Source: Escherichia coli (GTDB lineage Bacteria; Pseudomonadota; Gammaproteobacteria; Enterobacterales; Enterobacteriaceae). From it: a stretch of DNA of 64,000 nucleotides. The stretch is from assembly GCF_024502345.1 (NCBI RefSeq), contig NZ_JALDNN010000003.1; one strand, written 5' to 3'. Positions 30,001 to 33,000 of the stretch are shown one piece after another. Position 1 is the stretch's first letter, and every line of letters begins with the position of its first letter. The position numbers were made by a program.

Positions 30001-33000
30001 CACGTTGACGCTCTGCTGCCTGAGCGGCTGAGATCTTGCGAGCAGCTTCTGGGTATATGCGATACAGTGCAGTCAGGGTGTAACAGGTACGGGTAGTGAC
30101 CAGGCTATAGCCAGTGGCATTACAGGCAATACAGCGGCTCTTATAAAAGTGATTGCGTTCGCCACGTCCATTGCATTTATTGCAAGTAACACGGTAAATA
30201 TATTCCCCGGTGCCTTTTACTGAATCAATACACTTAATCTTAGCGTTATCGATTGCCATTCCGCTACGGTCAAAGTATTTATCCATTTTTGATTCCTCAG
30301 GTTTGGTCTGAAGTAATAATGACAGATTGGCCTCGCTGGCTAATAACCTGAACGAACGTTTTTTGAAAATAAATCAGGAAGGATGATTGAGATGATTTAT
30401 ATATGCAGGATTCAATTTTAATGGAGGGTATTTTCAGAATTATCTGTTTACAAAAAACGAAACAAATCCTAATGAGGCATTTATTGCATCACAATAAAAG
30501 TGATTGCTTTTCACTCATTTGAGTAGCGATGCTTAAGTATTTATCCGTTTTAAGGTATAACAGCAGCGTGATACGACTCAGGGAATGCCTGTCCGTCACC
30601 TTAATGATGCTTTACTTCCGGTTGCCGAAACAGTCCATATGGCTGACATGTATTACACGCACGGTCTAACGCAGTTCCGGGGGGTGGCACAGCGGCGTGA
30701 TGCCGCTTTAATCTGGAAAACGCAGGCATCTACTGGTGCCTCAGGATCGCGGCACTCGCAAGCTGAAACACCAGAGCCTGTTCGTCTTCCGGCTGTATCG
30801 CTCGTCCCCGTCTACAAAACCCGTCTCATCCGCAGGTATCGCTGGCGCACTCCCAGACGGTTAGAGGCTTTCGGGAACTGCCTGGGTCAAAGAACACCGG
30901 CGTTCAGGTAGCTGTTGAAATGGACATCTACACGTTTTTGTTCAAGTGATTCAGTTGTGGTGAGGGCATAACGGGTAATGCCCTCCCGTGAAGCCCTGAG
31001 AAAAGTTACTTTTCCAGGATTAATGCAGTCTGGCTTTTAATATAAATTCAGGGGATATTTTTTAAAAAAAATACCTGTCGTCAACTTATTAGAAAAGTAA
31101 GTCAAAATGCTAGAGTGTTCTCATTCAAAAAGAGGAGAACTAACCATGCCAAAATATTTGTTACCTGCCGAGCTTGCGGAAATTGTTTGTGGATTACTGG
31201 TGCAACCAGCATTATTGAATGAATTAAAAACACCAGCCACGCATAAAGCATTTATGCAGGACATCGGCGAGCTGGTGGCGAAACATTGCGGCGGTCAAAT
31301 TGACGGCGTGATCATGCCTGAGGTACGCGATGAAGACAGCCAGGCCGATTACCTGACATCTCCAGATGAAACCCCTTATATTGTTGTCTCTCCTGGCCAG
31401 GACATGCACTCCCTCACAGATAACGTCTGGCGTCATCATGCCCGGGATGGCTGGCTTGACCATATCAAAGGCAGTGTCGAAGAAAGCCCTGATGAACTGC
31501 CGACCCACAAAGAGTGCGCTGTACGCCGCTACACCCTCCAGCGTCTGCTCCTTCAGGAAGAAACCAGCCATGCTAATCTGCCAGTACAGGTGGTGCGGAT
31601 GTGTGAGTACAGCACCGACGATGTTGAGCAGACCGATTCTTCAGCAGAGTTTAACGTCACAATGGCGCTCGGTGGTCATGCCATGCTGGCAGTAAAAGAT
31701 ACAGATTCCCGTCTGGTGATGGCCCTGACACTCTTGATTGAAAATGGAGTTCCCTCTGTCCACGTTAATGCGGGTGACACTGATCCTTCAGTTCTGCACA
31801 TCCGGGCAGCTCACGGTGGTCTGGTTCTTTCAACCGACTCCCTTAATCATGATTTCAGTATTTCGCCCTCTGACCAGTATACCTACGGACGCCCTGGATT
31901 ATTATTGAAAGCCGCCTACTGATTTATTAATTCAAAATCCGTCATTATTATTTACCCCCATTTTTCGCCCCTAACTTATGGGGCGAGTATATTTTAAAAA
32001 ACTTTCTTTCAGGTTATTAGCCAGCAAACTAGAACTGGTAGAATTAATTCATCAGAGAAAAGGGGACTATCATGGCTAAATTAATTTCGACGCGTGAACT
32101 GGCAACAATTATTACTGCATTACTGGTAAAACCAGAATTACTGGGCGAGCTGGATTCCCCAGAAAAACATCGCGCCCTGATGGAAGATCTGGGGCGTGTT
32201 GTGGCAGAGCATTGTGGCGGTAATGTCACTGAAATCGCACTACCGGAGACCGATGGTACGGCTGCTGAAGGCGCGTTGCAGAATGGCCAGCCCGTCCGCT
32301 ATCTGGAAACCAAAGAAAGCTCTCCGTATCTCATCGTACACCCTGACGCCTCACTGCCGTCGGTGACGCAAAACGTCTGGATGCACGCTGATCATGATGG
32401 CTGGGAAGAGCATTTCAACGGAGAGACCGATGCCCTGACTCCAGAGATGAGCGAGCAGTTCCGCCAGCAGGTTTATGCACTGCTGACGCCGGAATCCCAT
32501 ACCACCTCTTCAGAAATGAGACTGACTTTGCAGGACTGGCAACTGGGTGAAGCCGAGATCCCAGAAGAAGACTGTCAGCCCTACCAGGTGAAGGTGTTAG
32601 CAGAAAATAAAAACGTTCAGTGCGAAGTGACGAATGAAACCGGCACCACGTGTTTCGGCCTCATTTTGGAGATCGACCGTGGTGTACCGACGCTGCACAT
32701 TGATACGGGCAGTGATTCACTGCTGCACATTCACGCGGCACATGACGGCCTGGTTCTGACACCGGATGCACCGAGCCACAGATTTGAAGATGCTCCTGTA
32801 GATCGCTTTTCTTATAACAGCCCGTCCCTGTTGGTGCCTGGGGTGTAACCAGGCAAACTGCCCAGCGGTATTTTGGCCCCGGGTAAAATTATTCAGAACA
32901 GGAGTCAGGCAGATGGGCGATGTTGCCACACTACCACCGAAAATTAACGATGGCGTACTTCGACGCTGGAATGCTCGCGATAAAGCGGATAAAGAGGCGC

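Follow-up and report, generated by a model that had tools for sequence, protein, structure and literature searches.

A tandem pair of paralogous genes on IncHI1 plasmids belongs to an uncharacterised protein family of mobile elements

Genes A and B of an IncHI1 plasmid are true tandem paralogs, adjacent, co-oriented, and similar over their full length, and the family that they represent is confined to mobile elements. They were studied in a window of 64,000 nucleotides (the whole stretch of DNA analysed) from contig NZ_JALDNN010000003.1 of Escherichia coli. The window comes from an IncHI1 plasmid of the pHCM1/R27 kind; bases 30500-33500 are 99.8% identical to pHCM1 from S. Typhi CT18 and are matched likewise by many R27-type plasmids. 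In typhoid Salmonella, multidrug resistance is borne by IncHI plasmids, which also spread mcr-1 (PMC6764697). Every source names the copies of this family ‘hypothetical’, and neither the two genes nor either of the motifs described below (a palindrome and the GGTTATTAGCC promoter) was found mentioned in the literature.

The gene pair and its paralogy

The two adjacent co-oriented ORFs of the original prediction are present where it had placed them. On the basis of ORF analysis, mutual alignment, and PGAP annotation, gene A extends over 31146..31922 and gene B over 32072..32848, both on the + strand, and each encodes an acidic protein of 258 aa, of the A type and the B type, respectively. A composition-adjusted BLASTP alignment of the two proteins, approximately full length, contains 83/262 identities (32%) and 51% positives with an E value of 1e-44. 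The Smith-Waterman score of the pair is 365, while 500 shuffles of B gave 35.4 +/- 5.8 (maximum 62), which corresponds to z = 57. Therefore, the similarity goes beyond composition, and the description of the pair as alignable over its full length yet clearly diverged is borne out.

The sizes originally given to the proteins, 271 and 258 aa, are correct for the second; the first has 258 aa when read from ATG 31146. The longer reading, from ATG 31107, was rejected since this ATG is not conserved, lies inside the predicted promoter of A, and precedes the point, at 31146 or residue 14 of the 271-aa reading, where the alignment with B begins. In the orthologous locus of Pseudocitrobacter (L012), in which the promoter region is conserved, the upstream ATG falls in another reading frame, and a stop codon interrupts the in-frame sequence upstream of A both there and in an Enterobacter locus (L005, on a 487-kb contig). 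A ribosome-binding site, GAGGAG, is found at 31132-31137 ahead of ATG 31146, and B has AAGGGG at 32060-65. PGAP annotates both genes as 777-nt hypothetical CDS in pHCM1 and R27.

Domain architecture and predicted structure

Module alignments divide both proteins into two domains. A contains an N-domain (aa ~1-135; 31146-31550, + strand) and a beta-rich C-domain (aa ~147-258; 31584-31919, + strand), and the corresponding parts of B are encoded at 32072-32476 and ~32510-32845 on the same strand. According to these alignments, the N-module of ~135 aa carries the motifs LLVKPELLGELD, HCGG, NVW, and GW, and the C-module of ~110 aa carries DWR, GVPALHI, and LHIHAAHGGLVLTPD. At least 90% of 128 N-domain sequences share C48 (within HCGG), W95, W103, and R128, and G49 and G50 are invariant. 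The two modules are not always found together: among 185 matches, 60 contain both, 84 the N-module only, and 26 the C-module only.

The statement that no domain is recognisable holds, as searches of A and B against Pfam (E <= 0.01), NCBIfam, PHROGs, PADLOC, and PDB sequences returned no match; the description of the pair as tandem duplicated genes without an assigned function is thus supported both by the paralogy and by the profile libraries searched. No Pfam domain was found in ten multi-domain relatives, and the PADLOC defence models matched none of A, B, and eight domain-variant relatives. Elsewhere, the N-module is fused to DUF5983 (proteins P0040, P0041, and P0071) or to unrecognised C-termini, with DUF5983 carried by only 4 of 54 relatives. 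Neither A nor B matches the Pfam model of DUF5983 (PF19419), and the idea that their C-domain is a divergent DUF5983 was rejected in a profile-profile comparison (hhalign probability 0.2%). The beta-meander C-domain of A and B is unrelated to DUF5983, and only the N-domain is common to the two families, by way of the fusions. Both are mobile-element families without an assigned function. In Vibrio mediterranei (L018, 8845-10735), a stand-alone DUF5983 gene lies in an operon with a family member, so that DUF5983 is tied to the family twice, by N-domain fusion and by a common operon, in a Rosetta-stone type of link.

Structure prediction, one of the checks proposed with the original prediction, gave an AF2 model of full-length A with a pLDDT of 79.9, and a model of the N-domain built from 128 sequences reached a pLDDT of 93.6 and a pTM of 0.85. 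Foldseek found no match to the models among solved folds, and profile searches of PDB sequences were also empty. The N-domain, confidently predicted as it is, has no counterpart for its modelled fold among solved folds. A has a pI of 4.84 and a net charge of -20, B a pI of 4.53 and a net charge of -28, and the median pI of the family is 4.46; neither signal peptides nor transmembrane segments were found in the family sequences.

Conservation and evolution of the pair

The pair is conserved as a pair on other plasmids, which was the second check proposed. At least 80% of the length of a 3-kb query, with both genes together, is carried by 274 of 281 matching plasmids; identity to the query is at least 99% in 218 of the matching plasmids and 80-90% in 61. 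A and B are also adjacent in L012, at identities of 83% for A and 86% for B, and in L005, at 52% for each. The ORFs are intact in all three lineages, and comparison with L012 gave a dN/dS of 0.196 (A) and 0.204 (B). Therefore, both copies are under purifying selection and are not decaying duplicates.

A phylogenetic tree was constructed by neighbour-joining with 200 bootstraps. The core A clade received 100% and its grouping with the single copy of L009 95%, whereas B grouped with the single copy of IncHI2 at 96.5%; the whole B clade was supported at 95%, and A and B together at 94.5%. A single family copy is present in IncHI2, IncHI1B, L009, and Vibrio, and that of IncHI2, the only one it retains, is of the B type. 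From this topology, the A/B duplication is ancient, older than the split of IncHI1 and IncHI2, and lineages later lost one or the other paralog. The family gene is dispensable in some plasmids: paralog loss differs by lineage, and in hit H48 the gene is broken into two CDS.

Next to the Vibrio and L009 relatives, no further family paralogs were found. L009 contains another tandem pair at 10624-12336, which is unrelated to the A/B family and follows its single family copy downstream at a distance of 2 kb; the two genes are of similar size (275 and 276 aa), with 31% identity in a stretch of 100 aa (E 3e-8).

Distribution and gene neighbourhood of the family

A family member was detected by tblastn in 2,440 of 72,556 PLSDB plasmid records, and 1,794 of the 2,440 are predicted to be conjugative. 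All PLSDB records inspected were of the MOBH/MPF_F IncHI type (IncHI1, IncHI2, IncHI1B/FIB). Among 1.84 billion representative proteins, a profile search gave 452 matches at E <= 1e-3, and only 6 loci with the family occur in 100,044 species-representative genomes. Relatives extend to Vibrio, Enterovibrio, and other Gammaproteobacteria, and some of them adjoin other T4SS types. A phage origin was ruled against, since no relatives were found in IMG/VR viral contigs.

The neighbours of family genes vary between plasmids. An orphan methyltransferase gene lies directly downstream of the family gene in IncHI2, L005, and L009; in IncHI1B plasmids the gene after the family member encodes a HAD hydrolase, and in those of Klebsiella psiA is found two genes upstream. 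The Vibrio copy is flanked by umuDC, Eco57I-type methylase, and PAPS-reductase-like genes. Near the pair in IncHI1 are higB-like toxin, PAPS-reductase-like, Dam, and DUF4942 methylase genes, and genes for RepHI1B and an Ig-like domain protein are also among its neighbours. Two parts of the window, assigned by mapping to the replicon regions of RepHI1B and RepHI1A, each contain an iteron array (40782-41258 and 53383-55408; repeats of 20 nt and periodic repeats of 43/44 nt).

The higB-like gene (29459-29755, - strand) is located 1.4 kb upstream of the pair on the opposite strand, with another gene between. A and B do not qualify as the antitoxin partner of this HigB-like toxin, as they are not adjacent to it and no HTH domain was found in them with Pfam. 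An IS1 element at ~28700-29450 (InsB ORF 28912-29415), absent from this site in pHCM1 and R27, parts the higB-like gene from a 389-aa gene (27495-28661, - strand) that follows it directly in those plasmids. If the 389-aa gene is the partner, the insertion may uncouple the toxin from it.

The gene in between (29819-30286, - strand) encodes a 155-aa protein with CxxC zinc-ribbon motifs and weak matches to DnaJ central domains. Further weak matches are to PHROG families with Q-like antiterminators among their members (phrog_127, E 4e-4; phrog_4046, E 5e-8). The gene has the promoter type of B, and in L005, L009, and L012 its synteny with the family gene is kept.

Transcription signals around the pair

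A hairpin resembling an intrinsic terminator is located 42 nt past the stop codon of A (31964..31997, + strand), with an 8-bp GC-rich stem at 31964-31987 and a U-rich tail. Its folding energy is -15.4 kcal/mol (z -3.5), and hairpins of other sequence occupy the same position in L012 (z -6.0) and in L005 (z -2.9, followed by UUUUUU). Beyond it, a predicted promoter of B (32012..32044, + strand) lies ~50 nt ahead of the ATG; it consists of GGTTATTAGCC at 32012-22, a spacer of 13 nt, TGG at 32036-38, and TAGAAT at 32039-44. The GGTTATTAGCC 11-mer ahead of B is invariant in three lineages, while its flanks have diverged. The predicted promoter of A (31086..31116, + strand), into which ATG 31107 falls, is a degenerate version with TTATTAG at 31086-92, a spacer of 15 nt, the extended -10 TG at 31108-09, and TAGAGT at 31111-16. 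Since a hairpin conserved in structure separates the genes and each has its own copy of the promoter, A and B are probably transcribed as separate units, as far as such signals can be read from the sequence.

The same architecture recurs elsewhere. The exact pattern GGTTATTAGCC-N13-TGn-(-10) occurs 3 times in the window against 0.00 expected, namely before B, before the divergent 155-aa zinc-ribbon gene (a paralogous predicted promoter at 30316..30348, - strand), and before a DUF957 gene, each ~50 nt from the ATG. The sequence at 31990-32025, upstream of B, is repeated in inverted orientation at 30335-30371 (92% across 37 nt; E 5e-8). The relaxed pattern TTATTAG-N15-TGnTAnnnT was found 5 times against 0.02 expected. 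Promoter-type sites, some 50 nt ahead of start codons of IncHI backbone genes, lie at 32012-32044(+), 30316-30348(-), 17263-17295(-), 31086-31116(+), 27032-27062(-), and 9165-9195(-), and also in L005, L007, L009, and L012; ahead of the family gene itself, the GGTTATTAGCC architecture is found in IncHI2, L009, L012, and both L005 copies.

Middle promoters of phage T4 that depend on MotA have a non-sigma70 box in place of the -35 hexamer together with an extended -10 (TGn). The GGTTATTAGCC class, as predicted from its sequence, resembles them in combining a conserved box at the -35 place with an extended -10 (TGn), but the box sequence differs and no MotA or AsiA homolog was identified. A box at this place that is unlike the -35 hexamer suggests a plasmid-specific factor.

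Most R27 genes belong to one programme that depends on HtdA, TrhR, and TrhY (PMC7366339). The place of the pair in R27 microarrays depends on how the CDS are counted: up from IS30 (R0046), the pair is R0059/R0060, which are expressed and show a 4-fold rise in an htdA mutant at 25 C; down from IS10 (R0076), it is R0062/R0063, which are listed as not expressed. The two counts are in conflict, and neither is relied on here.

The palindrome and the region upstream of gene A

A 13-bp palindrome, AAAAGTWACTTTT, occurs in 17 copies in the window when up to one mismatch is allowed, against 0.11 expected. Its sites include 9209, 15886, 22124, 27290, 31001, 45125, 50624, and 60819, and 7 of 8 copies mapped onto the pHCM1 annotation are intergenic. 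The copy upstream of the pair, AAAAGTTACTTTT (31001..31013, without strand), is invariant in L012. The original prediction had put it about 95 bp upstream of the genes; the motif is real and lies 93 bp before ATG 31107, but 132 bp before the true start codon of A at 31146. The palindrome is conserved across IncHI1, IncHI2, and IncHI1B, and is present in L002, L005, L007, L008, and L009.

In IncP plasmids, the regulons of KorB and KorA have operators spread upstream of backbone operons. Likewise, the 13-bp perfect palindrome occurs at variable distances upstream of many IncHI backbone operons; its sequence differs from the IncP operators. Because of the variable distance, it is probably an operator-type site, KorB-like, and not a core promoter element. 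A 387-aa protein (47521-48684, - strand) has a borderline ParB-HTH match (PF17762, E 1.3e-4), and its start codon is preceded, at a distance of 84 bp, by a one-mismatch copy of the palindrome (48768-48780). As a guess, this protein may bind the palindrome and thereby regulate its own gene.

At 859 bp, the intergenic region upstream of A (30287-31145) is unusually long, and its core is GC-rich. It aligns with L012 at 82% mean column identity with several indels, and a 108-aa ORF in it has no paralog within the window. A Frpo-like single-strand promoter or structured RNA was rejected for this region, with a z of 0.14 for the single-stranded DNA fold and no Rfam match there. The sole Rfam match in the window is the sok antitoxin RNA (RF01794, 89 bits) at 10127-10288 (- strand), which marks a hok/sok module.

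Possible functions of the family

In view of the genes around the family members, their acidity, their restriction to mobile elements, the swapping of modules, and the loss of copies in some plasmids, A and B may be host-interference or establishment factors of the plasmid, a reading that can be put forward only tentatively. It can be potentially described as follows. A and B would be functional, separately transcribed, cytoplasmic paralogs of an IncHI-backbone family, in which a conserved N-terminal alpha/beta module is joined to a swappable C-module, in their case a beta-meander. A common activity or anchoring function would come from the N-module, and the variable C-module would bind a host target, e.g. 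a component of defence or of the stress response. With the ancient duplication, IncHI1 could then carry two specificities.

The gene company of family members, with orphan methylases, psiA, higB, and umuDC-type genes, is that of plasmid anti-defence and establishment islands (PMC11541004). A and B also share acidity, predicted cytoplasmic location, and confinement to conjugative elements with these islands and with ArdA, KlcA/ArdB, and PsiA/PsiB. In contrast, they are larger (258 aa, two domains), and show no sequence match to ArdA, KlcA/ArdB, PsiA, or PsiB in Pfam or NCBIfam and no fold similarity to the solved members of these anti-restriction and SOS-inhibition families. Since the searched libraries hold few anti-defence proteins, this silence is weakly informative.

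Further observations also speak against the host-interference or establishment reading. The pair occupies 62.2-63.9 kb of R27, ~40-45 kb away from mobI/MobH (103.9-108.1 kb), near which oriT is expected, and its strand is not that of the long array of small genes directed towards mobI. Unlike genes of the establishment islands, it is therefore neither oriT-proximal nor in leading-strand orientation, and is not a classical leading-region gene, given the assumed oriT position and transfer polarity. The dN/dS of 0.2 gives no sign of an arms race. If the count down from IS10 is the right one, the R27 microarrays would also list the pair as not expressed. Finally, DNA mimics such as ArdA and Ocr have a higher charge density than A and B, with -0.08 to -0.11 per residue.

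One alternative is that the proteins bind or process a small molecule, with a ligand-binding or catalytic N-module built around Cys48, Trp95, Trp103, and Arg128 and a C-module that tunes specificity. The strong conservation of these four residues and of G49 and G50 agrees with it, as do the HAD hydrolase gene of IncHI1B and the association with DUF5983 through fusion or operon. DUF5983 has been assigned a glyoxalase/bleomycin-resistance-like fold with a putative small-molecule site (preprint 10.1101/2024.01.30.577995). Overall, such a role appears unlikely.

A plasmid-internal role, as an accessory of IncHI conjugation, of replication control, or of the plasmid-wide transcription programme, is also improbable. 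It would fit a gene of the IncHI backbone that uses an IncHI-specific promoter class common to other backbone genes, on a plasmid whose genes mostly follow one programme, and with RepHI1B and Ig-like protein genes nearby; a related Ig-like protein of R27, RSP, is needed for conjugation (PMC6764697). However, no DNA-binding or known regulatory domain was found with Pfam, neither Tra1 nor Tra2 contains the pair, some conjugative plasmids that are otherwise intact have the gene in split form, and relatives occur beside other T4SS types.

It has little likelihood that A and B form an obligate heterodimer, i.e. one functional unit and not two diversified copies. The pair is kept together in three lineages, and the two genes have diverged almost equally (83/86% and 52/52% identity) with equal dN/dS. 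However, a structurally conserved hairpin and a separate predicted promoter of B lie between the genes, a single copy suffices in most IncHI-type plasmids (IncHI2, IncHI1B, L009, Vibrio), and it is now one paralog and now the other that has been lost.

An accessory of a toxin-antitoxin or addiction module is very unlikely: the reported presence of DUF5983, an alternative C-module of the family, directly downstream of the cbtA toxin gene in E. coli (PMC10790755), the higB-like gene 1.4 kb upstream, and RES-Xre pairs next to relatives in L006 and L016 would suggest it, but toxin-antitoxin genes are common throughout such regions, so that proximity carries little weight, and A and B are neither adjacent to nor in an operon with a toxin gene and are divergently transcribed from the higB side.

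The host-interference reading can be extended further. A and B would then be a new kind of counter-defence or host-manipulation protein, with an unseen N-fold, interchangeable target-binding C-modules, and two specificities in IncHI1, fired from the GGTTATTAGCC and extended -10 promoter class under a plasmid-encoded factor that replaces -35 recognition. This proposal as a whole is doubtful, and nothing in the evidence shows an unusual mechanism. If it were true, IncHI plasmids would have their own transcription programme for backbone genes.

Significance

What is new is an uncharacterised and widespread IncHI family with an old, selected duplication, the copies of which were hitherto only ‘hypothetical’. 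An anonymous ORF pair has become a defined target for knock-outs and pull-downs, namely a selected protein with two separable modules, a likely promoter, and a likely terminator. In addition, the 13-bp palindrome and the promoter class with GGTTATTAGCC may give access to the expression programme that spans the R27 plasmid (PMC7366339).
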